Assembly (NCBI GenBank): GCA_902796945.1
Contig: CADBQR010000041.1
Location: forward strand, 1-61,631
Length of the DNA stretch: 61,631 bases
Reading direction: 5' to 3'
Source: an uncultured Acidaminococcus sp.
GTDB lineage: Bacteria; Bacillota; Negativicutes; Acidaminococcales; Acidaminococcaceae
Shown here: in pieces, positions 25,575 through 43,229 of the stretch
Numbering within the stretch: position 1 is the first letter of the stretch
Layout: the number at the start of each line of letters is the position of its first letter
The notes under the pieces: generated by a model
The model's database searches: none
Told to the model about the DNA's origin: nothing
Seen by the model: only the letters and a program-made list of their open reading frames with translations
Translations under genes and position numbers: made by a program

Positions 25575-25615
25575 CTGCTTTTCATATTGCCATGATCAAA
25601 AAGCAAAAGAGCCTG

Positions 25616-26047
25616 TCATACGCAGGAAAATCCCATAATGACCGTAGTTCCCTTTCCGACCTCGGTTTCGATCCGGAATGTATCGGATACCTTTTTCATG
25701 TTCGGCAGTCCCATACCGGCCCCGAAGCCCTTGGCCCGGATTTCTTCCGAAGCCGTTGACCAGCCTTCCTGCATGGCTTTCTCCACATCCGGGATGCCCG
25801 GCCCGTGGTCTTCAATGCGGACCGTTATGACATGCGGGGTAATGTCGGCAATGACAACGCCTCCCCCGCCATGGATCAGGCAATTGATTTCTCCTTCATA
25901 GGTACCGATAGCAATCCGCCGGACCGTCTCCGGTGCCAGGCCAAGTTTCTGCAGCAGCTCCTTAAGCGAGATGGAAGCCGCGCCGGCCCGTTCAAAATCA
26001 TCGACCTCTACAGTGTACCTCTTTTCCACGTTACCGGTTCTCCGCAT
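25616..26047 (-). CDS. Anti-sigma-factor-type Ser/Thr kinase (HATPase_c, RsbT/SpoIIAB-like)
   Basis: N box YEGEINCLIHG, D box EDHGPGI, G boxes GFGAGMGL and GKGT. Alternative GTG start at 26029. Confidence 0.85.
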   Translation of the reverse strand: MRRTGNVEKRYTVEVDDFERAGAASISLKELLQKLGLAPETVRRIAIGTYEGEINCLIHGGGGVVIADITPHVITVRIEDHGPGIPDVEKAMQEGWSTASEEIRAKGFGAGMGLPNMKKVSDTFRIETEVGKGTTVIMGFSCV

Positions 26048-26399
26048 CCTTGGCCGTACAGCCTCTCAGTCCCAACGCATACAACCGGCCGCAGGCCTCG
26101 AACATGGTGCATTTTGTATAGAGGACAGGAATATCCTTGTTTTGGGCCGCAAGAAGCACTTCCGTTTCCGGATGTTTATCGCGGACAAAAACGATGGCCG
26201 CAATATCGCTGACATCAGCGGTCCGGACAACCTGGATATTCAGCAGGCCCGTCAGCAGGACTGCCTTGTTCTTGGCGTAAGCCAGCACATCGCTCATCAT
26301 GTCGCTGCCGCAGGCCATACGGACCTCCCGCCCCATCAGTTTTTCTCCACAGGCGACCTGTGCATTCAGGGCTTCCGCTGCTTGTTTTAACGTAATCAT
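26031..26399 (-). CDS. DRTGG-domain protein
   Basis: MITLKQAAEALNAQV, GSDMMSDVLA, LLTGL...VVRTA. ATG at 26399 after AGGAGG, 30 nt behind the regulator stop. Confidence 0.8.
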   Translation of the reverse strand: MITLKQAAEALNAQVACGEKLMGREVRMACGSDMMSDVLAYAKNKAVLLTGLLNIQVVRTADVSDIAAIVFVRDKHPETEVLLAAQNKDIPVLYTKCTMFEACGRLYALGLRGCTAKDAENR

Positions 26400-26428
26400 T
26401 TGATTTCCTCCTGTCTTACTCATGTTTT

Positions 26429-29400
26429 TTATCTTCGCGTAATGCAAAACAGATTTTCCAGCTGCTGCCGTTCCCAGGTATCCCGATGCGGGTCCAGGGC
26501 CTGCAGGGCCTTGGTCGCATAACTGGACATACTGGCCGGATAATGGGCATTGATGTTCTGCGTTGGATATTGATGCTTGATGATGGCCACCGCCATGTAA
26601 ACGTAGCCCGCTTCCCGGGGATTATTCATCTTTTTGAGTTTGGCCATGGCATCGTCAAGGAATTCGATGGTTTCTTTTTCCTTTCCCTTCCGCATGGACA
26701 ACAGGGCCAGATAAGCTTCCACAATGGGGTGGCGCCAGTAGAAATTATACCGTGGGAAGAGTTCGTAGGCCTGATGGAAATACTTTTCGGCCTGTTCGTA
26801 CCGCCCCATGGCGTAACAGACGACGCCGGCGTTGCAGGAAAAAACGACCCGTGAACTGTACGCATCCTGATCCTTGGCATATTCCAGTGCTTTGTCATAA
26901 TAGTCAAGCGCTTCCTGGTAACGGCCCATACCTCGACGGATCTCGCCGAGATAATTGCAGGCGCCGGCAATATTCAGGGCATAACGGCGCTGCACACTCT
27001 GGGTTACCATGAAGGTAGAAATGGATTCCTTCAGGAGCCGTTCTGCTTCGGTAAAGTTTCCCTGCATGATCATGTTGAGTCCTTTTAAGCGAAGCAGGAT
27101 TCCCATTTCCTTGTGATAATTGCACTCATCGGCTACATTGAGGGCCAGTTCCAGGTAATTCTTCATTTCTTCCGTATTGCCAATCTGGATATCATAATAG
27201 ATCATCTGCTTGTACCCCATCAGCAGATAATCAAGATTACGCATTTCCGAGGCAATTTCAATGAGGCTCAGGATGTTTCGGACACCCTTTTCATACTCCC
27301 CGGTCCGGATGTAATGGCGCCCCATCAGATGAAGGTACGTCATTTCCAGGTCCCGCACTTCAGCCGTATCACCGTAGGTCCTGTGGATGGTGTGCATCAG
27401 TTCATCCACTTCACTGACCAGTTCATCCAGGTGAAGTTCCAGGGAAGAGCTTTTTTCCCGGTCTTCTTTCTGGCTCCCGGAAGAATCCAGCACGGGAAAC
27501 AATTCATTGCTGAAGTTCAGGTAATACATGAGGGTCTTCAGCTTATAACGCCCCATGTTCACCAGCTCACCGGACTCCTTGTAATGGTATTCCAAATGAC
27601 GGTAGATACGGATGTCCTGTGTGGAATGGGTCAGACGTTTTTCCCAGAGCCCGGCTACATAGCTGTGGAGGATCCGCCATTTTTCCTGCGAAATCTGCTG
27701 TTTTACGTACCCGCGCAGCTTTTGCTGGATGATTTCATAAAGGACTTCCGGCTGCTGGGGAATGGGTTTGATGAAATTATTTTTCTCCAGGGCTTCCAGG
27801 CTTTCCAGGACCTGCAGGTTGCTCATATGCATATATTCAGAGATCATTGCCAGCGGGGCCCCGTCGTAAAACAGGGAAATAAAATCCAGGATCTTCCGCT
27901 GATCATCTGACAAAGCCGCACAGCCGCTGCGGAAAATCGTTCTCACATTCTCCGTCAGGTTATCGGTACTTCCCGTTGTCTTCAAGGCCAGCAGGTATTC
28001 CTTTAACAGGAAAAGATTTCCTTCCGAGTCGTTCCACAGATGCTGAATGATGTCATCCGTGACCTGGATTTCCGGAACCGATGCGGCCGCAACCTGGCGG
28101 ACCTGATCCTTCGTAAGCGGCAGCAGATCAATGCTATGGAGGCGATGATACATACCGACGGAATCCTGGAATTGCTGGAACTCCTTGCTGCTGGAATTCC
28201 GGGCCGTCAGGAGGAACATGAAGTTCCGTGATTTCTGGTGCAGGATCAGGCTGCTCAAAAGGGACAGGCTGAGGGGATCCATCCACTGCACATCTTCAAA
28301 GACGAGGACCAGCTGATGGGTTTCCGAAATTGCCTCAAGGACGGAATAAAGAGTATGGAAAATCGCGTCAAACTTCAGGATTTCCTTGATTTCCCCCAAG
28401 CCGGCCTCATGTCCCTCCACCATATCAAGTTGGGGAAACAGCTTATAAAGTCGATTGGGCTCCACATCAGGAACACAGATGTGGTCCTTTTGGATCAGGT
28501 TCCGCAGTCCCTCCATAATGCCCGTCCAGGGGCGCAGGAGTATATTGCGCTCCGGCTGATAACAGTTGCTTTGAATGACCGTGACTTCCGGAGGCAGTAC
28601 CTGAAGGGCCGCATCCTTGACCAGGGTCTTACCGCTGCCGGCAGCCCCCTGAATCAGCAGGGTATCGGCATTCTGTCCCATCAGGAAACGATCCATAAAC
28701 AGATTGACTTCCTGCTGTTCCTTTTCCCGCCCCAGGATCTTTTCATCCCTGGGAATCATCACTGCCGGTTCTTCCCGATTCTGGGCAGAAGCCTGCTGCA
28801 TCATGGCCTCAATTTCCGGGGGCACACTGCTTTTCAGCTCCTCCCGGAACAATTTCTTCATTTCCTCATACAGCTCAAGGGCCTGATGCATATTTCCCTG
28901 TTCGCAATAGGACTTGAGGAGAAGAATGTAAATACTCTCGTCGTAAGGATTGTGGGCAATCAGCTGGCGCCCATAGCGGGATACCTTTGCCATATTTCCC
29001 GTCGCTACGGCCTCTTTCAATTTCTGGAACAATGCATCAAGGTAGATTCCTTCCAAACGATCCCGTTCGGTCAGGTACCAGTTCTCATATTCCGGAGAAT
29101 CCTTGATATAAAAACCCTGCAGAAAATTTCCCTGGTAGAGAGAAAGGCAATTGCCCGGGTTTTTTTCAAATTCACTGACATCAACCTTAAAATGGACCTC
29201 CGGGTTGACTTTGATGATGGCCTTTCTCGGAGAAACGAAGACATCCGTCCCCAACAGCTTTTTCGTTTCATAGATTGCGTTTCGGAGATTTTTCCGGGCT
29301 ACTGCATCCGATTTGTCACCCCACAGGATACCGCTCATTTCATCCCTCATGACCGTACCCTTGACCAGGATGTAGTACACCAAGGCATTTACTTTATTGT

Positions 29401-29476
29401 ACGGAAAAAAGACTTCTTTCCCGTCTTTTTTGATGACAGGAGCACCCAGAAAGCGCGCCTCCAAAGTACTTGCCAT
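26429..29476 (-). CDS. Large SARP-like transcriptional regulator: wHTH-BTAD, STAND/AAA ATPase, TPR repeats
   Basis: N-terminal FLG...LVYY...RDEMSGILW...ARKNLRNAIY (OmpR-like wHTH); BTAD (NPYDESIY); Walker A GAAGSGKT; Walker B LVFEDVQWMD; C-terminal TPRs (CNYLGEI...GRYQEALDYY). Confidence 0.85.
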   Translation of the reverse strand: MASTLEARFLGAPVIKKDGKEVFFPYNKVNALVYYILVKGTVMRDEMSGILWGDKSDAVARKNLRNAIYETKKLLGTDVFVSPRKAIIKVNPEVHFKVDVSEFEKNPGNCLSLYQGNFLQGFYIKDSPEYENWYLTERDRLEGIYLDALFQKLKEAVATGNMAKVSRYGRQLIAHNPYDESIYILLLKSYCEQGNMHQALELYEEMKKLFREELKSSVPPEIEAMMQQASAQNREEPAVMIPRDEKILGREKEQQEVNLFMDRFLMGQNADTLLIQGAAGSGKTLVKDAALQVLPPEVTVIQSNCYQPERNILLRPWTGIMEGLRNLIQKDHICVPDVEPNRLYKLFPQLDMVEGHEAGLGEIKEILKFDAIFHTLYSVLEAISETHQLVLVFEDVQWMDPLSLSLLSSLILHQKSRNFMFLLTARNSSSKEFQQFQDSVGMYHRLHSIDLLPLTKDQVRQVAAASVPEIQVTDDIIQHLWNDSEGNLFLLKEYLLALKTTGSTDNLTENVRTIFRSGCAALSDDQRKILDFISLFYDGAPLAMISEYMHMSNLQVLESLEALEKNNFIKPIPQQPEVLYEIIQQKLRGYVKQQISQEKWRILHSYVAGLWEKRLTHSTQDIRIYRHLEYHYKESGELVNMGRYKLKTLMYYLNFSNELFPVLDSSGSQKEDREKSSSLELHLDELVSEVDELMHTIHRTYGDTAEVRDLEMTYLHLMGRHYIRTGEYEKGVRNILSLIEIASEMRNLDYLLMGYKQMIYYDIQIGNTEEMKNYLELALNVADECNYHKEMGILLRLKGLNMIMQGNFTEAERLLKESISTFMVTQSVQRRYALNIAGACNYLGEIRRGMGRYQEALDYYDKALEYAKDQDAYSSRVVFSCNAGVVCYAMGRYEQAEKYFHQAYELFPRYNFYWRHPIVEAYLALLSMRKGKEKETIEFLDDAMAKLKKMNNPREAGYVYMAVAIIKHQYPTQNINAHYPASMSSYATKALQALDPHRDTWERQQLENLFCITRR

Positions 29477-29552: not shown

Positions 29553-29581
29553 ATTATATAATAAATTTCATGATATGACAA
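29553..29581 (-). promoter_or_regulatory. Sigma70 promoter of the regulator gene
   Basis: Minus strand TTGTCA-17 nt-TATAAT (29581-29576; 29558-29553). Confidence 0.75.
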
Positions 29582-29838: not shown

Positions 29839-29870
29839 AAAGAGGACAGGAAAGACATCCCATCCTCTTT
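29839..29870 (-). terminator. Intrinsic terminator after hutI
   Basis: Minus strand AAAGAGGATGGGA...TCCTGTCCTCTTT followed by TTCTTT. Confidence 0.7.
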
Positions 29871-29881
29871 ACGGATTATGA

Positions 29882-31129
29882 TCAGCAGGCACTGTGGACC
29901 AGTTTGCCCTTTTTGATGACCTTTTCTACGATATTGACGCCGGTATGGTACGGCAGGAACTTATAGGAAGGATATTGCAGAATGACCAGATCCGCCTGCT
30001 TTCCCTCCTCAATGGTTCCGATCCGGTCCGCCCGGTCCACGGCGGCAGCACCATTCAGCGTAAGGGCTGTAATGGTCTCCTCCGCGCTCATATGCATGTA
30101 AATCACCGCCAGGCCAATCATAAGTGGTACCGAGAAGGTGAACCCACTGCCGGGATTGAAATCTGTGGCCAACGCCACGGCGCAGCCAGTGTCAATCATT
30201 TCCCGGGCCCGGGCAAACGGTTCCCGCAGACAGAAAGCCGTCGTAGGAAGAAGGGTCGAAACGACCCCATTTTCCGCCATTGCCCGGATACCGGCGTCAG
30301 AAGCATGAAGCAGGTGATCCGCGCTGGTGGCGTGAAGTTCAGCGGCCAGTTCACTTCCGCCCAGGGATACGATTTCATCCGCGTGGATTTTCAGCTTAAA
30401 TCCCATTTTCCGTGCTTCCGTCAGGAGATGACGGCTTTGTTCCACGGAAAAGACGCCCTTTTCACAAAAAACATCGCAGAATTCGGCAAGCCGTTCCCGT
30501 GCCACTGTCGGCATAACCTGGTGCAGCAGGAATTCAATGAACTCATCGCCCCGGCCCTCGTACTCAGGTGGTACGGCGTGGGCTCCCAAGAAGGTAGAAA
30601 CCAGTTCAATCGGCTGGGATTCATTCAGCTTCCGCGTCACGTGGAGCTGCTTGATTTCCGTATCTTCATCCTGACCATATCCACTTTTGGCTTCCACCGT
30701 TGTCAGGCCCATGGCGAGCATTTTTTTCAGGTGGTCCATGGCATGTCGGATCAGTTCTTCTTCCGAAGCGGCGCGGGTCGCCTTCATGGTGTTTACGATA
30801 CCTCCGCCCCGGTTCATGATATCCATATAGCTCATGCCGCCCATGCGCCACAGAAACTCATCAGGACGGTAACCACCGAATACCAGATGGGTATGGGAGT
30901 CGACAAATCCGGGAAGCACGGCTTTTCCCGCAGCATCAATCCGGCAGGATTCTGGAACACCCCGGCCTATTCTATCCACGTCCCCGATGGCGCTGATCTT
31001 ACCGTCCTCTACCAGAATGGACTGGTTTTCATAAACGGAAAGCTCGGCCATTTCCCTTCCGAAATGCGCTTTCTTTCCAAGGGGTGTCACAATTTGGGCC
31101 GCATTTTCAATCAATAAAGGTTGTGTCAT
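29882..31129 (-). CDS. hutI: Imidazolonepropionase
   Basis: PGFVDSHTH, EAKSGYG, GAH, HADE, DHL, ATDFNPGS. Start MTQPLL after AAGGAG. Confidence 0.95.
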   Translation of the reverse strand: MTQPLLIENAAQIVTPLGKKAHFGREMAELSVYENQSILVEDGKISAIGDVDRIGRGVPESCRIDAAGKAVLPGFVDSHTHLVFGGYRPDEFLWRMGGMSYMDIMNRGGGIVNTMKATRAASEEELIRHAMDHLKKMLAMGLTTVEAKSGYGQDEDTEIKQLHVTRKLNESQPIELVSTFLGAHAVPPEYEGRGDEFIEFLLHQVMPTVARERLAEFCDVFCEKGVFSVEQSRHLLTEARKMGFKLKIHADEIVSLGGSELAAELHATSADHLLHASDAGIRAMAENGVVSTLLPTTAFCLREPFARAREMIDTGCAVALATDFNPGSGFTFSVPLMIGLAVIYMHMSAEETITALTLNGAAAVDRADRIGTIEEGKQADLVILQYPSYKFLPYHTGVNIVEKVIKKGKLVHSAC

Positions 31130-31236: not shown

Positions 31237-33285
31237 TCAGTCTTTGATTACATGTGCCTTCGGATAGACTTTGGCGACTGCCTCTTTTACCATCTGATCA
31301 TCGGCCAGATACGGAATGGTCAAGTGTCCAATACCAGCACGGGTCGCGTTGTATTCAATGGCGGTTTCCATGGCATGTTCATTGCGCGCCCAGCTGCGGC
31401 GGGCAACACCGCTCATGACATCCCAGCTCAGGGCGCTGCGGATAATTTCATCGACCCGATGGCTGCCATCCAGGACCAGGCCAAAGCCACCGTTAATGGC
31501 CTTGCCGATACCGACGCCGCCGCCATTATGGAGTGCCACCAGGCTCATGCCTCTAGCCGCGTTGCCGGCGTAGGTCTGCACAGCCATATCGGCCATGACA
31601 TTGGAGCCATCTTTGATATTGGAAGTTTCACGGAACGGGGAATCCGTACCGGATACGTCGTGATGATCGCGACCCATCATGACCGGTCCGATTTCGCCCT
31701 TACGGACCAGTTCATTGAATTTCAGGGCAATATTGACCCGGCCGATTTCATCCTGATAGAGGATACGGGCCTGGGTACCGACAACGAGCTTGTTTTTCTC
31801 GGCATCCCGGATCCAGATATAGTTATCCCGGTCCTGATAACGGCGGTTCGGATCGATACAGCTCATGGCAGCCATATCCGTCTTATGCAGGTCCTCCGGC
31901 TTGCCGCTCAGGCATACCCAGCGGAACGGGCCATAGCCATAATCAAAAAGCTGCGGTCCCATGATATCTTCCACATAGGAAGGCCAGATGAATCCATCTT
32001 TATCATCCACGCCGTTTCTGGAAATTTCCTTGACGCCGGAATCAAAGACCGCCTTCATGAAGGAGTTGCCATAATCGAAGAAATATACCCCTTTGGAGGT
32101 AATCCGCTTCAATGCATTGAAGTGGGCGTGAAGGCTCTTATCAACCAATTCATGGAAATGTTTCGGATCTTCTGCCAGCATCCGGGTCCGTTCCTCAAAC
32201 GTCAGTCCCTGTGGGCAATATCCGCCGTTATAGGCGTTGTGGCAGGAGGTCTGATCGGACACCAGGTCCACATGGATATCGTGGTCGGCAATGTATTCCA
32301 GCAGGTCTACGATGTTGCCATGGTAGGCATAGGCTTTGCCTTCCTTCCTGGCCATGGCGTCCTGGGCCAGTTTGATGACTTCCGGGATGGAATCCGATTC
32401 GCCGGAAATCCAACCCTGATCCAGGCGGGTCTTGATGCGGGATTCGTCCACTTCCGCTATGATTGCCGCACAATTGGCAATGATGGCAGCCTTGCCCTGG
32501 GCACCGCTCATACCGCCCAGGCCGGATGTTACAAACAGCTTGCCACCCAGATCGCCGTCTTCAGGAATTCCCAGCTTCATTCGGCCGGCATTCAGGATCG
32601 TGTTGAAGGTACCATGGACAATTCCCTGCGGCCCGATATACATCCAGCCGCCGGCCGTCATCTGGCCATAGTTGGCAACGCCCATCTCTTCCGCGATTTC
32701 CCAATCCCTCTGGTTATCATATTCGCCGACCATGATTCCATTCGTGATAATGACCCTTGGCGCTTCCGGCTTGGAACGGAACAACCCTACGGGATGTCCG
32801 GATTCCATGACGAGGGTCTGATCCGGCGTCATCTCTTCCAGATACCGTTTGATCAGCAAATACTGCATCCAATCGTGGCAGACGGAACCGGTTTCTCCAT
32901 AGGTCACCAGTTCATAGGGATACAGGGCCACTTCAAAATCCAGGTTATTATCAATCATGACCTGGAAAGCCTTCCCTTCCGTGCATTTCCCTTTGTATTC
33001 GTCAATCGGTTTGCCATAGATACGGCCTTCCGGGCGGAAACGATACCCATAGATGCGGCCGCGGGTAGTCAGTTCTTCCAGGAATTCAGGAATCAGTTCC
33101 GCGTGGAACTCTTCCGGAATGTAGCGCAGGGCATTTTTCAACGCCAGCTCGGTCTGTGCCGGGGTCAGGCGGAAGCCACGATCCGGGGCCCGCCGGATTC
33201 CCTCAACGAACTTTTTCTTTGGAGGCAGTCCGTCAGGAAATTCCAATTTAATTGTCATCGCCTTTGCAATGTCAGCATTTTTCAT
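31237..33285 (-). CDS. hutU: Urocanate hydratase (long form)
   Basis: 682 aa; GQMTAGGWMYIGPQGIVHGT, GLGGMSGAQ, DQTSCH, GRDHHD, HNGGGVG. Confidence 0.96.
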   Translation of the reverse strand: MKNADIAKAMTIKLEFPDGLPPKKKFVEGIRRAPDRGFRLTPAQTELALKNALRYIPEEFHAELIPEFLEELTTRGRIYGYRFRPEGRIYGKPIDEYKGKCTEGKAFQVMIDNNLDFEVALYPYELVTYGETGSVCHDWMQYLLIKRYLEEMTPDQTLVMESGHPVGLFRSKPEAPRVIITNGIMVGEYDNQRDWEIAEEMGVANYGQMTAGGWMYIGPQGIVHGTFNTILNAGRMKLGIPEDGDLGGKLFVTSGLGGMSGAQGKAAIIANCAAIIAEVDESRIKTRLDQGWISGESDSIPEVIKLAQDAMARKEGKAYAYHGNIVDLLEYIADHDIHVDLVSDQTSCHNAYNGGYCPQGLTFEERTRMLAEDPKHFHELVDKSLHAHFNALKRITSKGVYFFDYGNSFMKAVFDSGVKEISRNGVDDKDGFIWPSYVEDIMGPQLFDYGYGPFRWVCLSGKPEDLHKTDMAAMSCIDPNRRYQDRDNYIWIRDAEKNKLVVGTQARILYQDEIGRVNIALKFNELVRKGEIGPVMMGRDHHDVSGTDSPFRETSNIKDGSNVMADMAVQTYAGNAARGMSLVALHNGGGVGIGKAINGGFGLVLDGSHRVDEIIRSALSWDVMSGVARRSWARNEHAMETAIEYNATRAGIGHLTIPYLADDQMVKEAVAKVYPKAHVIKD

Positions 33286-33358: not shown

Positions 33359-33388
33359 ATTTTATCGATTCATCATCTGAAAAACGTC
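33359..33388 (-). promoter_or_regulatory. hut box plus -10 (hutU-hutI promoter)
   Basis: Minus strand GACGTTTTTCAG-12 nt-TAAAAT. Confidence 0.8.
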
Positions 33389-33526
33389 GAATGAAAACCG
33401 TATTTCAGTCATTTTCTCCTTCCGTAACCAGGCCGTCCTTCAGGAAAGCGTCGAAAAAACGGTCGGTTCCGTCCGAAAATCCGTCGATTCTCCCGTTTTG
33501 CTTCCCGTTCCATCGATCATGGTGGA

Positions 33527-33567
33527 AATACGGTGCCAACACAGTCCCGCTGCGAAAGCACCGTATT
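33527..33567 (-). terminator. Hairpin / probable terminator after hutH
   Basis: AATACGGTGC ... GCACCGTATT inverted repeat with an inner stem; short U tract. Confidence 0.55.
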
Positions 33568-33594
33568 CCCGTATTGTCGGTTCCGGAAAGGATA

Positions 33595-35157
33595 TCAGAA
33601 GAATCTTAAATCAACTTTTTCCTCAACCGCTTCCAGGACATCGCCATTCCTGACGACATTTGTAATTTTTTCCAGTTCCTTGAACATCTCGATATCTTTA
33701 TCGTAGGCAATGAATTGATTGCTCCTGCGGACCGCGTCATAAGCGGCCTGGGTCCCATCACCGAGCCTGAAGCCTTCGCCCTTGCGCAGGTCTATGGCCT
33801 GGCAGGCAGCGAGGAGTTCCGTTGCGATTACACGACGCACATTGTAGCAGATTTCCCCTGCTTTCCGGGCCGCCGTCGCACCCATGGAAACGAGGTCCTC
33901 CTGATTTTCACAGCTGGGAATTGAATCAACCGACGCCGGATGCGCCAGCACCTTGTTTTCACTGACAAGGGCAGCTGCTGCATATTGGGTAATCATGAAA
34001 CCGGAGTTCAAGCCGGGATGCGCAACCAGGAAGGACGGGAATCCACTGAGGGAATTGTTGATGGTCCGTTCCAGGCGGCGTTCAGAAACATTGGCAATTT
34101 CAGAAAGGCCGATGCCCAGGAAATCAAAGGGCAATGCCATCGGCTCACCATGGAAGTTTCCGCCGGAAATGACCGCTCCGTCAGGCAGGACAATCGGGTT
34201 ATCCGTAGCGGAATTGATTTCGATGTCAACCTTTTCCTTGACAAATCCCAAAGCATCCTTGCTGGCGCCGTGGATCTGGGGAACACAGCGCAGGGAATAC
34301 GGATCCTGGACCTTCAGTTCGCCCTGGTGTGTCACATAGGTACTGTTTTTTGTCAGGTTTCGGATATTGTAGGCCGTATCAAGTTGTCCACGATGCGGAC
34401 GAATCGTATGGAGCCTTTCATCAAATGCGTCAATGATGCCGCGGTTGGCTTCCAGCGTAAGGGCGGCTGCAATATCACTTTGCTTCAGGAGCAGCATGCC
34501 ATCCCACAGGGCAAACGTACCCATCGCGGTCAGGATGGGGGTCCCGTTGATAAGAGCCAGGCCTTCCTTGGCTACCAGTCTGATTGTCGGGATCCCGGCC
34601 CTGTCCATGGCTTCCCTGCCACTCATGAGCTGACCGTTATATTCGGCGTCGCCGAGGCCCAGCATGGGCAGGACCATATGAGCAAGCGGTGCCAGGTCTC
34701 CGGAAGCTCCCAGGGACCCTTTTTCCGGAATATAGGGATGAACGCCTTTATTGATCATTTCGACAAGGGTATTCAGGGTTTCCAGACGGATTCCGGAATA
34801 TCCCTTGACCAGCGCGTTGGCACGGATCAGCATGGCAGCACGGGTTACTTCCCGGGACAATGGATTGCCATACCCGCAGGAATGGGTACGGATCAGGTTT
34901 TCCTGCAGCTGGCTGCAATCCTCCTTGGAAATGGAAACACGGCACAGGGAGCCAAAACCAGTTGTCACACCGTAGACGACACGTTCATTTTCCACAATGT
35001 CATCAATCAGCGCACGGGACGCCTTGATTCGGGCAACCGCGTCGGTATCCACCCTGATTTTTGCATCATAGCGACTGACGGCTACCAGTTCTTCCAGGCT
35101 CAGGTCGTTACCGGTCAGAACAACCTCCTTGATATTCCTGACGTCTTTCAACAGCAT
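33595..35157 (-). CDS. hutH: Histidine ammonia-lyase
   Basis: YGVTTGFG, MIO-forming GSLGASGDLAPL, KEGLALING, QDPYSLRC, NQED. Start MLLK 9 nt after GAGGAGG. Confidence 0.96.
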   Translation of the reverse strand: MLLKDVRNIKEVVLTGNDLSLEELVAVSRYDAKIRVDTDAVARIKASRALIDDIVENERVVYGVTTGFGSLCRVSISKEDCSQLQENLIRTHSCGYGNPLSREVTRAAMLIRANALVKGYSGIRLETLNTLVEMINKGVHPYIPEKGSLGASGDLAPLAHMVLPMLGLGDAEYNGQLMSGREAMDRAGIPTIRLVAKEGLALINGTPILTAMGTFALWDGMLLLKQSDIAAALTLEANRGIIDAFDERLHTIRPHRGQLDTAYNIRNLTKNSTYVTHQGELKVQDPYSLRCVPQIHGASKDALGFVKEKVDIEINSATDNPIVLPDGAVISGGNFHGEPMALPFDFLGIGLSEIANVSERRLERTINNSLSGFPSFLVAHPGLNSGFMITQYAAAALVSENKVLAHPASVDSIPSCENQEDLVSMGATAARKAGEICYNVRRVIATELLAACQAIDLRKGEGFRLGDGTQAAYDAVRRSNQFIAYDKDIEMFKELEKITNVVRNGDVLEAVEEKVDLRFF

Positions 35158-35272
35158 GTTCGTCATCCTCCTCACAGACTTACAAGTTACAGGGAACAGT
35201 GCAGGGATCAAACAAAAATTTTTCAAAGGAAGCGGCCGCCTTTTTGGCAGGTAAAGGCAGCCATCCGATAAA

Positions 35273-36586
35273 TTACCCCAGGATCAGGGCACCGATGATG
35301 CCGCCGATGAACAAGGTAATATCATAAAAGATAAAGGTGGGTACACAGGTATCCCAGATATGGTTATGCTGCCCGTCGGCATTCAGGCCGGACGTCGGCC
35401 CCAATGTGGAATCGGAGGCAGGAGAACCGGCATCGCCCAAAGCGGCGGCAATACCGATCAACAGGATAATGGACCCAGTCGAGAAGCCCAGTTTATAACC
35501 CATGGGAATGTAAATAGAGGCAACAACGGGAATGGTTCCGAAGGAAGTCCCGATTCCCATCGTGATCAAAAGACCAACGGCCAACATGATAAACGCGCCG
35601 CTGAATTTCGTATTGATAATGGAAGTCGTCGCATTGACCAGGGCTTCAACCGAATGGGTTTCCCGAAGCACCTGGGCGTAGCCAGCCGCTACAAGCATGA
35701 CAAAGGCAATGAAGCCCATCATTTGAACACCGCCATCAACGTATTGGTCGACGTCCTTCCACTTGATGCCACCGGTCAGGATCATGACCAAAAGACCACT
35801 GGCGGCACCTATTGGCAGGGATTCAAAATATAACTGTCCAACAAAGGCGACCACCGCTGCAAAAAGGGCTTTCCAGCAGGCAGCCGTCATTTTCGGTTCC
35901 CCCACCGCCGTTTCATCGGAGACGCCAGTAATAGGGAGGTCCTTATATTCGCGGTCATGGGCACAGTACAGCAATATGGCCAGGACCAGGCCGACCAGCA
36001 TGGAAGCGCCGCCGATCCACATAACAGCAGAAATGTCACTGATTCCGACATTGACCTTGTTGGCTACCATCTGATCCTTGATGATCGTCATGAACAGCAG
36101 CCCAAATCCAACCGGCAGGGACACATAAGGCGCCTTCAGGCCAAAAGTCAGGGCACAGGCAACGGCCCGGCGGTCCAGTTTCATTTTATTCATGACATGG
36201 AGCAAAGGCGGAATTAAAATAGGAATGAATGCAATATGAACCGGGATCAGGTTCTGGGAAAAACAGGAGAAGAATGCAATGGTGAAACAGAAAAGGGCTT
36301 TTTTAGTACCTACGGTTTTGGCAATCTTACGGGCTGCAATATCAGCCACTCCGGAACGACCAATTGCGACAGCCAGGATTCCAAGAAGGATATAGCTCAA
36401 TGCCGTTTCCGAATTCCCTCCCATACCGGTAATCAGGGTACTGAAGGTCTTGGCAAGATCCATGCCCCCGGTCAGTCCGGCAACAACAGCGGATACAAGG
36501 ATTGCCAGCAGGACATTCATTTTGGCCAGGCATAAGGCAGACATAACAATAACGGATATTACGATTGGGTTGGTCAAAATCTCCAT
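35273..36586 (-). CDS. NhaC-like/YuiF-family permease, probable histidine transporter
   Basis: SQNLIPVHIAFIPILIPP, MGIGTSFGT, GDAGSPASDSTLGPT, DGQHNHIWDTC; co-transcribed with hutH. Confidence 0.8.
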   Translation of the reverse strand: MEILTNPIVISVIVMSALCLAKMNVLLAILVSAVVAGLTGGMDLAKTFSTLITGMGGNSETALSYILLGILAVAIGRSGVADIAARKIAKTVGTKKALFCFTIAFFSCFSQNLIPVHIAFIPILIPPLLHVMNKMKLDRRAVACALTFGLKAPYVSLPVGFGLLFMTIIKDQMVANKVNVGISDISAVMWIGGASMLVGLVLAILLYCAHDREYKDLPITGVSDETAVGEPKMTAACWKALFAAVVAFVGQLYFESLPIGAASGLLVMILTGGIKWKDVDQYVDGGVQMMGFIAFVMLVAAGYAQVLRETHSVEALVNATTSIINTKFSGAFIMLAVGLLITMGIGTSFGTIPVVASIYIPMGYKLGFSTGSIILLIGIAAALGDAGSPASDSTLGPTSGLNADGQHNHIWDTCVPTFIFYDITLFIGGIIGALILG

Positions 36587-36679
36587 GAAAAAATCTCAAC
36601 TCCTTTTTCAATTGATTACTCCGAAATCTTACGAATCATCAGGAAGCCGCCTGCCCGGTCTTCCTTTATCTACGGCCTC

Positions 36680-36709
36680 ATTGTAAAGAAAAGCTGACTG
36701 AAAAACGTC
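36680..36709 (-). promoter_or_regulatory. hut box plus -10 (permease-hutH promoter)
   Basis: Minus strand GACGTTTTTCAG-12 nt-TACAAT. Confidence 0.8.
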
Positions 36710-37211
36710 AAAATCCCTGTTGTTATCAGTTTTTCGCATTTTATGAACATCTTTTTTCTTTTGACGAAAGACAGCAATATACCCTGCTAAAGCATAAGGT
36801 TCAGTAAAAGGCTTGATTTTACGCGTTTTACAGTGAGTCCAGCAAAAAAAACATGTTAAAAAAACATACGATCTTCTTTTCTGATTCCGAATGATAAAAA
36901 TTAAATAAGTTTTATCATTTTTATCATATCGAATGATAAATTACACTTTTTGTTTAGTTCCACACTATATTCCCGTTCCTGTTCCTTCATAACGAGTCGT
37001 TTTTTTCTCTCGATTAAGGAATTACAAGCCCCTGCTTCGCCACCAGGAAAAAACGGTTGCCCTTGATTCAGGAAAGGGAAGAAACCGGCAATGACAGGCT
37101 ATCCCGTCCAGATACCCCATGAGTCCTGTAAAGCAGGGCTTTTTCTTTGGAAAAAGAATTCCTTTGCCCACAAAACAGGATATCATGCCATCGGACAGAA
37201 GAAGAACATCA

Positions 37212-37244
37212 AAAAAGAGGGTCCGGTCAAAGGACCCCCTTTTT
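37212..37244. terminator. Terminator after the cyclodeaminase gene (possibly bidirectional)
   Basis: AAAAAGAGGGTCC-ggtcaaa-GGACCCCCTTTTT. Confidence 0.7.
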
Positions 37245-37255
37245 CAACGAATCCA

Positions 37256-37876
37256 TCAGAGTTTTACTTTTCCAAGCAGCGCCTGTTCCCGGGCATCCAC
37301 CGTTTTTTCAATGGCCGCCATTTTTTCTGTCAGATCTGCCACAAAGGCTGCATCCTTGATGCTGCTCAGGTTAATCTTGACGTTCAGGAACGCGCCGCGC
37401 ACTGCGGCCCTGGCATTCATGGAAGCTACCGCGCCATCGGTTACTGCATTGGCATTGCCGCGGCAGATCACAATATCCGCCAGCTCCAGCAGACGGTTTG
37501 CCGTTTCGCCGACTTTAAAGGGCACCAACGCAGCTCCTTTGGTCGCTTCCTGAATGGCTTCATGACGCACAGCCTTTTCTTCATCGGTTCCTTTTGGCAT
37601 CTTAAAGGCGGCCATGATTTTATTGAAGGCATTGCTATCCTCATCAATCAGGGCCAGGAATTCATTTTTCAGGGACGCCGCCTTGGCAGCGACTTCCTTC
37701 ATTTCCGGTTCCGCAGAGGCGTATTTTTCCTTGCCGATGGTTAAATGGGCCACCATCTCAATCAAGGCCGCAGCAGAAGCAGCGTTCAGGGCAGCAATGC
37801 TGCCGCCACCCGGAGCGGGGGAAGAAGAACTGGTTTCCTGAATGAATGCTTCCACTGTCATTTTCTTTAATTCCAT
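37256..37876 (-). CDS. Formiminotetrahydrofolate cyclodeaminase / methenyl-THF cyclohydrolase family (FTCD_C)
   Basis: SSSPAPGGGSIAA, DEDSNAF, GNANAVTD, NVKINL. Start MELKK. Confidence 0.88.
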   Translation of the reverse strand: MELKKMTVEAFIQETSSSSPAPGGGSIAALNAASAAALIEMVAHLTIGKEKYASAEPEMKEVAAKAASLKNEFLALIDEDSNAFNKIMAAFKMPKGTDEEKAVRHEAIQEATKGAALVPFKVGETANRLLELADIVICRGNANAVTDGAVASMNARAAVRGAFLNVKINLSSIKDAAFVADLTEKMAAIEKTVDAREQALLGKVKL

Positions 37877-37962
37877 AGGGTATCCCTCGTTTCTACAATG
37901 ATCTACCATCCAATTCCCATAAAAGAAGGGCTGCTACAGGATTGTGCAACAGCCCCTATGAA

Positions 37963-39633
37963 TCAGAACAAACCGGTAATCTTACCGTTGGCGTCAATAT
38001 CCATGTTCAAGGCAGCCGGTTTCTTCGGCAGGCCGGGCATGACCATGATATTGCTTGTCTGACAGACGATGAATCCAGCGCCATTGGACACACGGACATC
38101 CTGCACCGTAATCCGGAAGTTCTTCGGAGCCCCCAGGAGTGCCGGATTGTCACTCAGGGAATACTGGGTTTTGGCTACACACACGGGCAGCTTGTCCAGT
38201 CCCCAGTCTTCCAACTGCTTGATTTGCTTTTTGGCATTCGGCGTAAAGTCAACACCGTCACCACCATAAATCTTGGTACAGATGGCCTCCAGTTTATGAG
38301 GAATCGTATCCTTCACATCATACAGTTCCACTTTCTTGGAATGGTCCTTTTCCAGCAATTCCACCAGCTTATGGGCCATGTCAATACCGCCTTCGCCGCC
38401 TTTTTCCCAGCATTCGTTGAGGGTGACTTCGACTCCATAGCTTTCACATTTCTTGAGGAGCATGTCCACTTCCGCCGGCGTATCGCTGGCAAATTTATTG
38501 ATGGCAACAAGGACGGGCAGACCAAAGCTGCGCATATTCTCGACCTGTTTAGCCAGGTTGGAGAAGCCATCACTGACAGCCTGGACATTTTCCTGATTCA
38601 GGTCGGTTTTCTTGACGCCGCCATGCATCTTAAGGGCACGAATGGTGGCAACGACAACCACCGCGTTCGGATAGAAACCGCCATAATGGCATTTGATGTC
38701 CATGAATTTTTCAGCACCCAGGTCAGCACCGAAGCCGGCTTCCGTAACAGTAATATCGCCGAGTTTCAAGGCCATCTTCGTTGCCAGCAGCGAATTGCAG
38801 CCATGGGCAATATTGGCGAAAGGCCCGCCATGAATGATTGCCGGCGTATGTTCCAGGGTCTGGACCAGGTTCGGTTTGATGGCATCCTTCATGAGAAGGG
38901 CCATGGCTCCTTCGCAGCCCAATTGATGGACATAGACAGGGTTCCCATCCAGATCGCAGCCGATGACAATCCGACCGAAACGTTCCTTCAGGTCCTGCAG
39001 GTCCTTGGCCAGGCAAAGGATTGCCATGATTTCCGAAGCAACCGTGATCATGAATCCATCCTGACGGGGGAAACCGCAGACTTTGCCGCCTAACCCGACA
39101 ACCACATTGCGGAGGGCACGGTCGTTCATATCCATCACGCGGCGCCAGGTAACCTGCCGGGAATCAATACGCAGGGCATTGCCCTGATGGATATGGTTAT
39201 CAATCATCGCCGACAACAGGTTGTTGGCAGCGGTAATGGCATGCATATCGCCGGTGAAATGGAGATTGATGTCATCCATCGGCACAACCTGTGCATATCC
39301 GCCGCCGGCAGCGCCTCCCTTGATACCAAAAACAGGACCCAGGGAAGGTTCACGCAGGGCAACGACCGCTTTTTTGCCAATCTTGTTCAAAGCCTGGACC
39401 AGACCAATACTGGTGGTCGATTTGCCTTCGCCCGCCGGAGTCGGGGTAATGGCGGTAACCAGGACCAGTTTGCCATTTGGTTTCTTTTCCAGACGTTTCA
39501 GGAGTTCCAGGGAAATCTTTGCCTTATAATGACCGTATTGTTCCAGTTCTTCCGGCAAAATATCCAATTGTTCGGCAATCTTGCCGATGGGTTCCATTAC
39601 GTTCTTTTGAGCAATCTCAATATCGCTTAACAC
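37963..39633 (-). CDS. fhs: Formate--tetrahydrofolate ligase
   Basis: [48 protein letters not shown]. Confidence 0.97.
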
Positions 39634-39771
39634 GCGCAGTTCCTCCTTGCCTAAAGGCCTATGATCTCAGGAAGCCGAGCAGGGCCGATTGGCCAGCCTT
39701 CTGTCAGTTTTTTGCAGCCGCTGGAGGCAGCCCTCCGCCCTGCTCCCAGATCCATTTATTTGAAACAGTCC

Positions 39772-40677
39772 TTAGTCCTCTGCATCCAGGAGACGCTTTT
39801 CAAGGATTTCATCCATATTGAAGTTTTCAATCTGCAGGTAATATTCAGCAGCCATGAGAAGGCTCTTCATCGGAACCGTACCGATGACTTCGCTGCCTAC
39901 GACAGGAACACCATAGCGGCGGGCTTCCATCTTGACCATTTCGAAGGCCCTGTAAACAGCCGTCTTTTCATAGTTGACAAGGTTCATGGAAACCTGGGTC
40001 TGGTTTCTTTCTTCCAATTTCAGGCCAATGGCCTTTACATAGTGCAGCCCACCGCCGATATTGCGCACCTTCTTGGCAATGGCCTGGGCGATTTCCACAT
40101 TATCCGTACCGAGGTTGACGTTGAAGGCAATCAGGGGTACCCGGGCGCCAATGGCAGAGCAGCCGGAAATGGCATTCATTTCGCAGGGGCCATAATCCGG
40201 TTTCCAGTTCGGATCCTTGATCTTTTCAAAGAAGCCTTCGTACTGGCCCTTACGGATCGTAGCCAGGTTGCGGCGTTCTTCATTGGTAGCGGCATCTTCG
40301 TACAGATAGACAGGAATGCCCATTTCACCGTAAGCCTTGCCGACATCATTGGCAATCTTGATGCATTCATCCATGGTAACGCCCATGACCGGCGTGAAAG
40401 GAACAACGTCAATAGCGCCAAACCGAGGATGGGCACCATGATGGGTTCTCATATCGATCAGGCCAATAGCAACCTTTGCCATATTGATGGCAGCTTCCGT
40501 TACGGCTTCCGGAGAACCGATGATGGTTACAACCGAACGGTTATGGTTTGGATCGAGGGAATAGTCAAGCAGGGTCAAGCCCTTGATTTTACGGGCTTCA
40601 TCCACAATCTTTTCAACTTTTTCCTTGTCGCGGCCTTCACTGAAATTCGGTACAAATTCCACTAATTTTTTAGCCAT
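39772..40677 (-). CDS. ftcD: Glutamate formiminotransferase
   Basis: VPNFSEGRD, HNRSVVT, HHGAHPRFGA, QVSMNL. Start MAKKL after GGAGG. Confidence 0.93.
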   Translation of the reverse strand: MAKKLVEFVPNFSEGRDKEKVEKIVDEARKIKGLTLLDYSLDPNHNRSVVTIIGSPEAVTEAAINMAKVAIGLIDMRTHHGAHPRFGAIDVVPFTPVMGVTMDECIKIANDVGKAYGEMGIPVYLYEDAATNEERRNLATIRKGQYEGFFEKIKDPNWKPDYGPCEMNAISGCSAIGARVPLIAFNVNLGTDNVEIAQAIAKKVRNIGGGLHYVKAIGLKLEERNQTQVSMNLVNYEKTAVYRAFEMVKMEARRYGVPVVGSEVIGTVPMKSLLMAAEYYLQIENFNMDEILEKRLLDAED

Positions 40678-40736
40678 GATGGCACCTCCATAAATTTGAC
40701 CGCTTACTGCGAAGCGGTTCATTTCAAATCGGATTT

Positions 40737-40766
40737 ATTTTATCCTCTTCACGACTGAAAAACGTC
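40737..40766 (-). promoter_or_regulatory. hut box plus -10 (ftcD-fhs-cyclodeaminase promoter)
   Basis: Minus strand GACGTTTTTCAG-12 nt-TAAAAT. Confidence 0.8.
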
Positions 40767-40810
40767 TGAAACAAAAAATACGTCCAAAATCCATTTTTTG
40801 ACTAAAATTT

Positions 40811-40840
40811 GACGTTTTTACAGTAGCATGAGGTTGAAAT
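40811..40840 (+). promoter_or_regulatory. Variant hut box plus weak -10 (divergent hutD promoter)
   Basis: GACGTTTTTACA-12 nt-TGAAAT, preceded by TTTGAC repeated at 11-bp spacing. Confidence 0.5.
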
Positions 40841-40862
40841 TTCAAGAACCGAGGTGCCTGTT

Positions 40863-41441
40863 ATGACCGTATCCATGATTCCCCGCAGCCAGGCGACTTC
40901 CACAACCTGGTCCGGCGGTACGACAACAGAATTTTTTATTTATCCAAAAGGCTCTTCCTATAAAGAGCGCCGTTTTGACGTTCGCATCAGTTCAGCCACG
41001 GTCGACCTGGAATCTTCCGACTGGACGCTGCTGCCCGGGTTCAACCGGATCATTACCCCGCTGAAGGGCGGCTTCACCTTAACCTACCAGGAAAAAGGAA
41101 CCAGCATCACATTGAAGCCATTGGAGGAAGATTTTCTCGATGGGGGCTGGCATACTCATTCCGTTGGAAAAGCCGTCGATTTCAATGTCATGTACAAAAA
41201 AGGGCTGCATGCAACCTATAGCGTCATTAAATCGTCAAAACGCTTCGGAACGGCAAAGCTACGTTTCGTATATGTCCCGTTTGTCACGGAGGAGAAACTG
41301 GCTGGCAGTACGCTGAACGGTAAGCCCCTGACTCCGGATACCCTGTACGTTTCCGACGACGGATCCGAAAAATTTGAACTGAACATCCGTCAGCCCGTCT
41401 CCCTGATCTACGTTTCCATCCATGATGATGGAAGGGATTGA
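40863..41441 (+). CDS. hutD: HutD/Ves family protein
   Basis: TTWSGGTTTE, FDVRISSATV, LPGFNR, DFNVM. ATG after GAGGTG. Confidence 0.88.
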   Translation: MTVSMIPRSQATSTTWSGGTTTEFFIYPKGSSYKERRFDVRISSATVDLESSDWTLLPGFNRIITPLKGGFTLTYQEKGTSITLKPLEEDFLDGGWHTHSVGKAVDFNVMYKKGLHATYSVIKSSKRFGTAKLRFVYVPFVTEEKLAGSTLNGKPLTPDTLYVSDDGSEKFELNIRQPVSLIYVSIHDDGRD

Positions 41442-41569: not shown

Positions 41570-41639
41570 AAGCAAACTATAGAAATACCATAAATTTTTA
41601 GGCAGTCTTCCCTGCCCTTTGGATAAGGATGGAAATATC

Positions 41640-43229
41640 ATGGAACCCTGGAAAGAAGAAACGAGTCTCTACACGCTGATAAAAGACCATATTGACAGGA
41701 ATGGCTTCTTCAATCCGGACCTCATTCGGGACAGGACCTTCGTGGAAAACTATCCGACCCTCTTCCGCGAACCCGGTTCGACGGATGTCTTCCTGTCCGA
41801 TATCGAACAACCGACCCAGGAAGAGGTAGGCGCACCGGTTCTTGAGGCACTGGAAGCTTACAGTGCGCACCCGAACCGGGCAATTGCCACCAATCTATAT
41901 TACAGCCTGGCAGTAACGCCTTTTGTCCTGTACAATGATTTCCTTGTCGATGTCATGTCCACACGGCCCATTCCCGGCCCGCTCTGGGAGTTATGCCTTT
42001 CCTGGCTCCACAAAGCCTTTGCGCCGGAACCCCTGAAACTGGCCATTACTGTGGCAGGCCTGCATTTATTGAACGAAGCGAACCTGAACGCTGCGGCTGC
42101 CATCAAGAAGGACCTGCTGCTGCTATCCCGTTGCGAGGAATTCACCAGTTATGTCATTTACGCATTGGAATTAGGGCACATGCTGGAAGAAGAGGATTTG
42201 TGGGATATAATGACCCATACCCGGCGTTGGGGAAGAGTCAGTGCCATGGAAACGTATAATTTCGTTACGCCGGAAGAAAAACACTGGCTCCTGTTGAACG
42301 GTTGGGATCTGGACATTGATTATCCTGCGGTTTCCCTTCTCATTTTAAAGAACAGCAATTTGCTGGAAATTTTGGATGCCCGGGAAATTTCCGACAGGGA
42401 TTTTGACGGAATGACCCACACCATTGTGGATTATGTCGATTTTCTGTTGAATTTTGAAGCCAAATCCCAGGAGATACGGGAAGAAATCGACGGGCAGATG
42501 CCGATTATCCAACTTTTCAGCCTGCTCCAGAAATTCCTTGACCAGGCCAAAAAGCATCACCGGACATTGGAACAAAATGCCGGCCTGATCAGTCTCTGGC
42601 AGGAGCTGCAGTCCATGGTTGACAACGCGAACTGGGATCATCTCAGTATGAATCAGTGCCATCTGCTCCTGGGCACCCTGGAATCCATGATCATGGAGAC
42701 CGATTGGGTCACGGAGCTTCCCCGGCGTATCCTGAAAAAAGATGGCAGCGTCAATCTGCTGGCCCTCAACATGGCCTACATCCTGAATATCGATATTCAC
42801 AGCCAGGTGTGGGACTTATTGAAAAAAGCACCGTTACGGACGGAATTGTACCCCTACCTGCTGACAACAAAAAACAAGCAGCGTCTGAACCGGATCCTGA
42901 AGTTTGCAGAAAACCACATGACCGAATACCTCCAGGTCGAGCACCTGGTCATGCCGCTCCTGGAAGGGCTCATGGAACAGCCCGGGCGGGGAGAGCGGAT
43001 TTTAGCAGAAGCACTCACCTCCCTTGATGAAGGAGCAAGGGCCAGTGCCATTGCTGTCCTTGAAAACTGGCCGGATAAGAAATGGTCCGCAGAATTGCAG
43101 ATTGCCCTCCTGAAGGCCCAAAAAATGACCCAGCAGCCTTTCCTGCAACTGCGGATCAATGAACTGATCCATCATCGTTCCCTGAACATGGAGGATTTTG
43201 CCACCGCTTTCCATAATCAATTTGAATAA
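41640..43229 (+). CDS. Hypothetical alpha-helical (HEAT/ARM-like) protein
   Basis: 529 aa, acidic and Leu-rich helices; own promoter and terminator; no catalytic motif recognised. Confidence 0.75.
   Translation: MEPWKEETSLYTLIKDHIDRNGFFNPDLIRDRTFVENYPTLFREPGSTDVFLSDIEQPTQEEVGAPVLEALEAYSAHPNRAIATNLYYSLAVTPFVLYNDFLVDVMSTRPIPGPLWELCLSWLHKAFAPEPLKLAITVAGLHLLNEANLNAAAAIKKDLLLLSRCEEFTSYVIYALELGHMLEEEDLWDIMTHTRRWGRVSAMETYNFVTPEEKHWLLLNGWDLDIDYPAVSLLILKNSNLLEILDAREISDRDFDGMTHTIVDYVDFLLNFEAKSQEIREEIDGQMPIIQLFSLLQKFLDQAKKHHRTLEQNAGLISLWQELQSMVDNANWDHLSMNQCHLLLGTLESMIMETDWVTELPRRILKKDGSVNLLALNMAYILNIDIHSQVWDLLKKAPLRTELYPYLLTTKNKQRLNRILKFAENHMTEYLQVEHLVMPLLEGLMEQPGRGERILAEALTSLDEGARASAIAVLENWPDKKWSAELQIALLKAQKMTQQPFLQLRINELIHHRSLNMEDFATAFHNQFE

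Follow-up and report, generated by a model that had tools for sequence, protein, structure and literature searches.

The window, 61,631 nucleotides of contig CADBQR010000041.1 (GenBank assembly GCA_902796945.1) from an uncultured Acidaminococcus sp., carries the genes for histidine uptake and breakdown (hut) next to a gene for a 1015-aa protein that combines a SARP DNA-binding region, a STAND ATPase and a TPR sensor. Named homologues likewise assign it to Acidaminococcus. Four promoters of this cluster share a box, a direct repeat with an 11-bp period at a fixed distance from the -10 hexamer, which is likely bound by the adjacent protein. The locus is laid out as follows.

26429..29476, minus strand: 1015-aa regulator, with an OmpR-type winged helix-turn-helix (~1-95), BTAD (110-227), STAND ATPase (Walker A 277-284, Walker B 390-395) and TPR sensor (~620-1015)
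29553..29581, minus strand: near-consensus sigma-A promoter of the regulator gene, 11/12 matches, 17-nt spacer, without the box
29839..29870, minus strand: terminator-like hairpin 3' of hutI, between hutI and the regulator gene
29882..31129, minus strand: hutI, imidazolonepropionase (TIGR01224), start set by the ribosome-binding site
31237..33285, minus strand: hutU, long-type urocanate hydratase (TIGR01228)
33359..33392, minus strand: hutU-hutI promoter, GACG 33388-33385, GATG 33377-33374, 9 nt, -10 TAAAAT 33364-33359, predicted start ~33352
33595..35154, minus strand: hutH, histidine ammonia-lyase (TIGR01225)
35273..36586, minus strand: Na+/H+ antiporter-family permease, by its context likely for histidine uptake
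36680..36713, minus strand: permease-hutH promoter, GACG 36709, GTCA 36698, 9 nt, -10 TACAAT 36685-36680, predicted start ~36673
37207..37249, minus strand: terminator-like hairpin 3' of fchA, upstream of the permease promoter
37256..37909, minus strand: fchA-like cyclodeaminase/cyclohydrolase (FTCD_C)
37963..39633, minus strand: fhs, formate-tetrahydrofolate ligase
39772..40677, minus strand: ftcD, glutamate formiminotransferase (TIGR02024)
40737..40770, minus strand: ftcD-fhs(-fchA) promoter, GACG 40766, GTCG 40755, 9 nt, -10 TAAAAT 40742-40737, predicted start ~40730
40796..40829, plus strand: hutD promoter, re-registered, GACT 40800, GACG 40811, 9 nt, -10 TAGCAT 40824-40829, predicted start ~40836
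40854..41441, plus strand: hutD (PF05962)

The site is a direct repeat, (T)wGACG-N7-GAYG-N9(10)-TAnAAT, and neither a 12-mer nor an inverted repeat. A sequence-only reading of the window had pointed to the 12-mer GACGTTTTTCAG, repeated exactly upstream of the three minus-strand hut units, and its observations were re-found: the copies lie on the minus strand at 33377-33388, 36698-36709 and 40755-40766, each 12 nt before a -10 hexamer (TAAAAT, TACAAT and TAAAAT, respectively), and at two of the three the identity extends to 14 bp. The 12-mer is rare, as that reading held, with 0.008-0.021 exact copies expected per window and 0.27-0.73 per genome under Markov models of order 1-7. The genome-wide scan proposed there found 5 exact copies in 2,169,265 bases (36 with one mismatch at most), and TAnAAT stands at +12 only at the three hut copies. 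The 12-mer runs from repeat 1 through a T-rich spacer to the G that opens repeat 2; as the conserved unit it was rejected, being exact in 6 of 43 Acidaminococcus sites, a set that comprises the sites found in the window and in 15 Acidaminococcus loci and overlaps the matrix training set described below. The inverted CTGA...TCAG is present at the hutU and permease promoters, as had been claimed, but CTGA occurs at that offset in just 5 of the 43 sites, and the inverted-repeat reading was likewise discarded. The variant that had been placed at 40811-40840 ahead of hutD was read in the wrong register: GACG 40811 is the second repeat and GACT 40800 the first, so that the true site lies 11 nt upstream, a register identical to that of the orthologous hutD promoters in four other loci (L001, L004, L010, L015). 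Finally, the -35 is not altogether absent; a TTGACG/TTGACT-like hexamer precedes the -10 by 20 nt, but this is too distant for normal sigma-A use.

The same repeat emerges from distant relatives. Expectation-maximization motif discovery, run without supplying the proposed pattern on 68 upstream regions of 32 non-Negativicutes loci, returned tTAGACg.TTt.T.GAcGaa.......TAtAaT with a log-likelihood of 383 vs 152-164 in three shuffles, which had fewer starts; the motif search suggested by the earlier reading thus recovered the box outside the Negativicutes, and boxes are present in 20/20 streptococcal regulator loci. In 91 regulator loci, which include training loci and their kin, period 11 is counted 99 times and none of the other periods between 7 and 16 more than 4 times, and the gap between repeat and -10 is 9 nt in 99 cases and 10 nt in 12, with at most 10 for other gaps; the same pattern is counted twice in 33 control loci. 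Across genera, only GAC, GAY and the -10 are conserved and the spacers are free. The conserved T is present in 49 of 50 training sites, in which the -35-like hexamer has A at the second position in 28 and T in 14, and G at the last position in 28. Extra repeats without a -10 lie upstream of 22/103 sites in the same orientation and of 24/103 in the opposite one, vs 2.4 and 2.5 in shuffles; many inverted ones represent divergent promoters, within the window only the ftcD/hutD pair. When a matrix is made only from 30 sites outside the Negativicutes, the four sites of the window rank second to fifth genome-wide; the top match is inside coding sequence and lacks a -10.

Box and regulator occur together. 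Of 16 genomes of the genus, 15 encode the regulator and the exception is 51% complete; a hut-pathway gene lies within 10 kb in 72 of the best 80 of 316 related loci; 20 of these 72 belong to oral Veillonella and have only fchA with fhs and the permease. Among 400 Bacillota genomes, hutU is present in 136 and the full-length regulator in 7, all 7 beside hutU. A scoring matrix was built from 50 pattern-anchored sites of named loci among L018-L097 and applied to the loci of these seven genomes, held out from training and at most 76% identical in DNA to the training loci, and to 33 regulator-free hut loci, hand-chosen from ~129, of which 30 have a long-type hutU like that of the window and 3 a short-type one. 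All seven held-out loci score at least 18, and a score of 14 is reached by 1/33 controls with a fixed gap and by 2/33 with a gap of 9 or 10. Fifteen regulator-bearing genomes have no hutU in the fetched locus; 13 of them have it elsewhere (in one, L146, just beyond the fetched flank), in 12 of 13 cases with a box. In 121 Streptococcaceae genomes the regulator and long-type hutU are found in the same 20, all with two divergent boxes, which are nearly identical and hence mark these loci as close kin; the five short-type hutU loci without regulator in this family have no box. The large regulators that the sequence-only reading mentioned beside hut clusters of some streptococci are real. The same association is seen within a single family, where one genome (G121) has regulator and box and two (G085, G155) have neither.

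The predicted protein suits such a site. Its BTAD matches PF03704 over the cut-off (E 6.5e-16, residues 110-227); AAA_16 is matched at 247-421, together with TPR families, of which TPR_MalT scores at its cut-off, and Pfam Trans_reg_C has no match in the regulator. In the AlphaFold model of residues 1-235 (mean confidence, pLDDT, 90.9), the closest structure is AfsR, with a Z of 18.0 and a root mean square deviation of 4.9 Å over 226 residues, followed by EmbR at 15.9 and the next match at 9.7; modelled residues 3-93 resemble OmpR/PhoB DNA-binding domains at Z 8-9. A profile of the regulator family matches full-length AfsR with E 8e-19, and the best Foldseek match of the full-length model is the STAND protein PH0952 (PDB 6mfv, E 1.6e-14). 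Both Walker A and Walker B are intact in this predicted STAND-type fold: in 30 diverse members, G277, G280, G282 and K283 are present in 100% and D395 in 97%. Recognition-helix residues K62-Y69 are conserved in the same 30, partly by construction because the helix served as search query, and N63, L64 and R65 are invariant also in a phmmer-derived alignment. Conserved polar and aromatic TPR residues (Y644, H/N657, R720, Y755, Q757, R796, Y832, W914) are candidates for lining a ligand groove. A family-profile search finds no other SARP-domain protein in the genome. At the C-terminus, which is modelled as TPR-like helices, no LuxR/GerE Pfam match indicates a LuxR helix-turn-helix.

Since the repeat is found almost only where the AfsR-like protein is encoded, that protein likely binds it, a central inference strongly supported by the comparative evidence and the predicted fold. 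The regulon in this genome is local, with four promoters and eight genes. Matches that might have widened it were examined on five further contigs and none was accepted: C107, where the match falls within a coding sequence and lacks a -10, C7, whose -10 is two bases off, and C118, C117 and C88. RNA reads from two runs of one sample, with shares of 0.14 and 0.08 and contigs with almost no promoter cover, were uninformative on starts or levels.

Several features adjoin the regulon. A terminator-like hairpin that carries TAGs lies between fhs and fchA (37926-37957, minus strand), inside the presumed ftcD-fhs-fchA unit; the gap that holds it is absent in L008. Directly after the regulator gene, with overlapping reading frames and no box ahead, come DRTGG, HATPase and Fe-hydrogenase-like genes (24291-26447, minus strand). 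A 536-aa open reading frame with no Pfam or NCBIfam match follows hutD (41619-43229, plus strand) and is kept near hutD in three other Acidaminococcus loci. Another Acidaminococcus locus (L017:5879-16181) has a second hut-like cluster with a short urocanase-like gene and a distant regulator paralogue (25% identity) interrupted by an insertion sequence; GACG-N7-GACT-N9-TATAAT still precedes the gene.

In other genomes the box also leads hutG, a histidine-racemase-like gene, glmL, and YfcC-type and other transporters. A DapF-like gene is box-led in five Clostridium loci (L075:16887, L085:13703, L091:14872, L092:13437, L093:13522), and its L085 product resembles histidine racemases, below family cut-offs. 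In three loci (L067:13164-20496, L079:15017-22865 and L083:3474-10966, all minus strand), a box with a gap of 10 leads genes for an acyl-CoA dehydrogenase, a YjiH-like transporter, a family III CoA-transferase, a second acyl-CoA dehydrogenase and electron transfer flavoprotein (ETF) beta/alpha, beside the regulator gene. The oral Veillonella loci (L038-L057) encode a regulator of 38% identity alongside fhs, fchA and the permease; the box there (e.g., L044:5400-5890, minus strand) faces a stretch of ~500 nt without a clear reading frame between two dicarboxylate symporter genes, which could be a relic promoter or a small RNA.

We consider it probable that the box is the site of the adjacent AfsR-like SARP-STAND-TPR protein and that this protein activates histidine uptake and breakdown upon a signal from the histidine pathway. 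What the analysis itself shows is a repeat of fixed geometry that co-occurs with the regulator, along with the domain order of that protein and the boxless consensus promoter of its gene. By analogy with AfsR, two SARP domains would sit head-to-tail on positions ~-40 to -19 and offer sigma-A region 4 a docking surface that replaces the misplaced -35 with its 20-nt spacer. As in other STAND proteins, the ATPase and TPR domains may keep the SARP domain in check as long as the TPR sensor has no ligand; histidine or urocanate would be our guess. The sequence-only reading had likewise proposed that the adjacent protein activates hut through its box: a -35-overlapping site at a fixed distance from the -10 is indeed tied to this regulator by co-occurrence and fold, but the site was described wrongly, and activation draws no support from the one knockout found, in a streptococcus.

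That knockout concerns SSA_0427 of Streptococcus sanguinis, named BrpL and published as a LuxR-type biofilm regulator that acts through ciaR (PMC5987052). It is likely the orthologue of the regulator, judging by its SARP annotation and by a gene order that is the same as in the streptococcal locus L104. Deletion of brpL in strain SK36, assayed in brain heart infusion (BHI) at 3 h, changed the nine genes SSA_0428-0436 by factors of 0.83-1.18, namely 0.98 (hutG), 0.98 (hutH), 0.93, 0.96, 0.96, 0.93, 1.18 (ftcD), 0.91 (hutU) and 0.83 (hutI), and the 474 genes that did change do not include hut (PMC5987052). At face value, this is the unchanged hut expression that the sequence-only reading had itself named as evidence against an activator, and it is joined by other observations that weigh on the same side. 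A site, GATG-N7-GACG-N9-TATAAT, stands 70 nt before hutU of L124, and no regulator was found in that 98%-complete genome (G329); conversely, some regulator loci, among them L070, L080 and L087, have no site in their flanks, and hutU of L067 and L150 has no box. The 20 oral Veillonella loci retain the regulator without hutH, hutU or hutI nearby, and a search of two such genomes found no hutU. Because related loci are not independent, the evidence is weaker than the counts suggest. At the first, fixed-gap threshold, 22 of the 91 regulator loci lacked a site, several of them being short contigs or gap-10 cases.

The null result of the brpL deletion is partly discounted, as the hut promoters are probably silent in rich medium. 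In S. pyogenes, both the divergent hut region and the promoter of the regulator are bound by CcpA (PMC8359418). The start-site map of that species in Todd-Hewitt yeast medium (THY) gives no start from SP119_1738 up to hutG, the stretch to which gene order would assign the other hut genes, and its table has entries for only hutG and the probable regulator gene in this region (PMC6431027). At promoters that are silent, as these presumably are, the loss of an activator would be invisible.

A different role for the same protein is unlikely: it could repress or only tune these promoters, or twist a promoter with a 20-bp spacer in the manner of MerR. The TTGACG-like hexamer placed exactly 20 nt before the -10 would fit this, as would a brpL deletion that did not lower hut transcripts and four Murdochiella/Levyella loci (L058, L063 and L065 at ~9932-9960; L069 at 8843) in which the repeat lies 5 nt before TATAAT ahead of the regulator gene, a possible autoregulatory site that looks like autorepression. 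The deletion did not raise hut transcripts either, however, so that the brpL data argue equally against a repressor; the hexamer, with its preference for A at the second and G at the last position, is not optimised for sigma region 4, a direct repeat and a SARP fold suit AfsR-type activation, and the available part of the S. pyogenes map in THY lists no start for these promoters (PMC6431027). It is less likely still that another factor, such as an OmpR/PhoB-type response regulator, binds the repeat and that the large protein has a separate function, for instance in biofilm formation and ciaR control as published for BrpL. OmpR-type regulators also bind repeats with an 11-bp period near the -35, a site without regulator exists in L124, and the 474 genes changed upon brpL deletion (PMC5987052) leave hut aside. 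Against such a factor, box and regulator go together across many families and also inside a single one, although no genome-wide search was made for a second co-occurring factor; the genome has a single SARP-domain protein by family profile, and the main text of the brpL paper mentions no complementation (PMC5987052).

Least probable, and in our view very improbable, is that the similarity reflects shared ancestry of duplicated sigma-A promoters and no site for a transcription factor, HutP or catabolite repression being in control instead. The T-rich spacer common to three window promoters speaks for this, as do the CcpA binding at the S. pyogenes hut promoter region (PMC8359418) and an orphan HutP-family gene in the genome (contig C137:5782-6210, E 1.4e-44). 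But the conservation across genera is confined to the two repeat cores and the -10 while spacers vary freely, the HutP gene, flanked by tRNA genes on another contig, is not linked to hut, TAG triplets are missing from the hutU leader, and loci without the regulator hardly ever show the pattern. The activator model, in which the SARP-STAND-TPR protein binds the box, is the one that we retain.

On this model, the regulator and its exact predicted operator become candidates for controlling how anaerobes of the gut and mouth (Acidaminococcus, Veillonella, Clostridium, Peptoniphilus, Filifactor), as well as streptococci, ferment histidine. For the streptococci, the finding suggests that BrpL is first of all a hut activator; it would also extend SARP-type activation to sigma-A promoters of primary metabolism. 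According to a 2026 preprint, the histidine-fermentation pathway limits imidazole propionate in the host, and hutHUI transcription in Otoolea symbiosa is repressed by glutamate, which also makes Acidaminococcus intestini use less histidine; its main text does not contain the word 'regulator' (PMC13320830). A. intestini carries the regulator-box system (L018); no protein of O. symbiosa or Fusobacterium was among the named matches of a further homologue search, in which most matches had no name. A broader view is tentative: AfsR-like, metabolite-gated activators might serve throughout the Firmicutes as the master switch of anaerobic histidine fermentation, with SARP-type sigma adaptation outside actinomycetes and a signal that weighs histidine against glutamate, and in some gut clostridia the same box might turn on an acyl-CoA dehydrogenase/CoA-transferase/ETF operon able to reduce urocanate to imidazole propionate without UrdA. 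The box-led acyl-CoA dehydrogenase operon, which Flintibacter faecis has, for example, is a candidate for such a UrdA-independent route.

Our literature search found no paper that describes this box or links a large SARP to histidine catabolism; RegPrecise, most subscription journals and the Bender 2012 review lay outside it, so a prior mention is possible. The supplements of Ravcheev 2013 list no hut regulon, and PMC9413887 treats HisR and T-boxes, a different system. A large SARP acting at a tandem repeat is already known as a kind; what was not found described is its tie to histidine catabolism and to this box.

Known hut regulators control the same pathway through folds and sites unrelated to those found here: HutC is a GntR repressor and HutP an RNA antiterminator (PMC12591593). 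As the sequence-only reading stated for the window, no HutC or HutP gene lies in the hut cluster; HutC (TIGR02018) has no match over its cut-off in this 85%-complete genome, and the direct repeat differs from the palindromic operator of the GntR/UTRA-type HutC regulon. A HutP regulon would combine a hutP gene linked to hut with a leader terminator that carries NAG repeats; in this genome the HutP gene is an orphan on C137, and TAGs occur in the fhs-fchA hairpin but not in the hutU leader. The HutR proteins of Corynebacterium and Staphylococcus, assigned to the IclR and LysR families, are equally unlike the regulator. Among the regulator-free controls, HutP, sigma-54 activators or an AraC protein adjoin hut in 7/33, as judged from 73 of 150 neighbouring reading frames scanned.

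BrpL, by contrast, resembles the window protein in its annotated SARP family, BTAD and TPR, and adjoins hutG, hutH, permease, fhs, ftcD, hutU and hutI in the L104 order; it differs in having been published as LuxR-type, the window protein lacking a match to that helix-turn-helix. In the part of the brpL paper available, hut, motif and promoter are not mentioned (PMC5987052). MalT and related STAND activators share the succession of STAND ATPase and TPR sensor. MalT binds MalT boxes through a C-terminal LuxR helix-turn-helix, whereas the DNA-binding domain here is the N-terminal SARP.

AfsR of Streptomyces coelicolor is the closest parallel, with the same order of SARP (ODB and BTAD), nucleotide-binding domain and TPR. 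In the afs box, a pair of 11-bp direct repeats spans -40 to -19 and covers a poor -35 (-38 to -33); two AfsR SARP domains bind there, making contacts along the first 8 bp of either repeat, recognising T-38 and docking sigma region 4 (PMC10936776); the claim of the sequence-only reading that activators such as AfsR bind -35-overlapping sites agrees with this. If the -10 is assumed at -12 to -7, the box here occupies the afs-box position, its conserved T falls at -38 and its cores at positions 3-8 of each 11-mer. AfsR residues W74, R87, T88, R94 and K95 align with W52, R65, N66, K72 and K73, in a stretch that is not significant by sequence alone. Unlike AfsR, the protein resides in a Firmicutes host with sigma-A, shares only ~23% identity with it in the SARP domain and faces a wGACG core instead of the afs repeat. 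Its targets lie in primary amino-acid catabolism rather than antibiotic control, which also sets it apart from SARPs in the narrow sense, the antibiotic regulators of Streptomyces defined by control of secondary metabolites in actinomycetes. Phosphorylation modulates AfsR, whereas the signal proposed for the window protein is a metabolite ligand.

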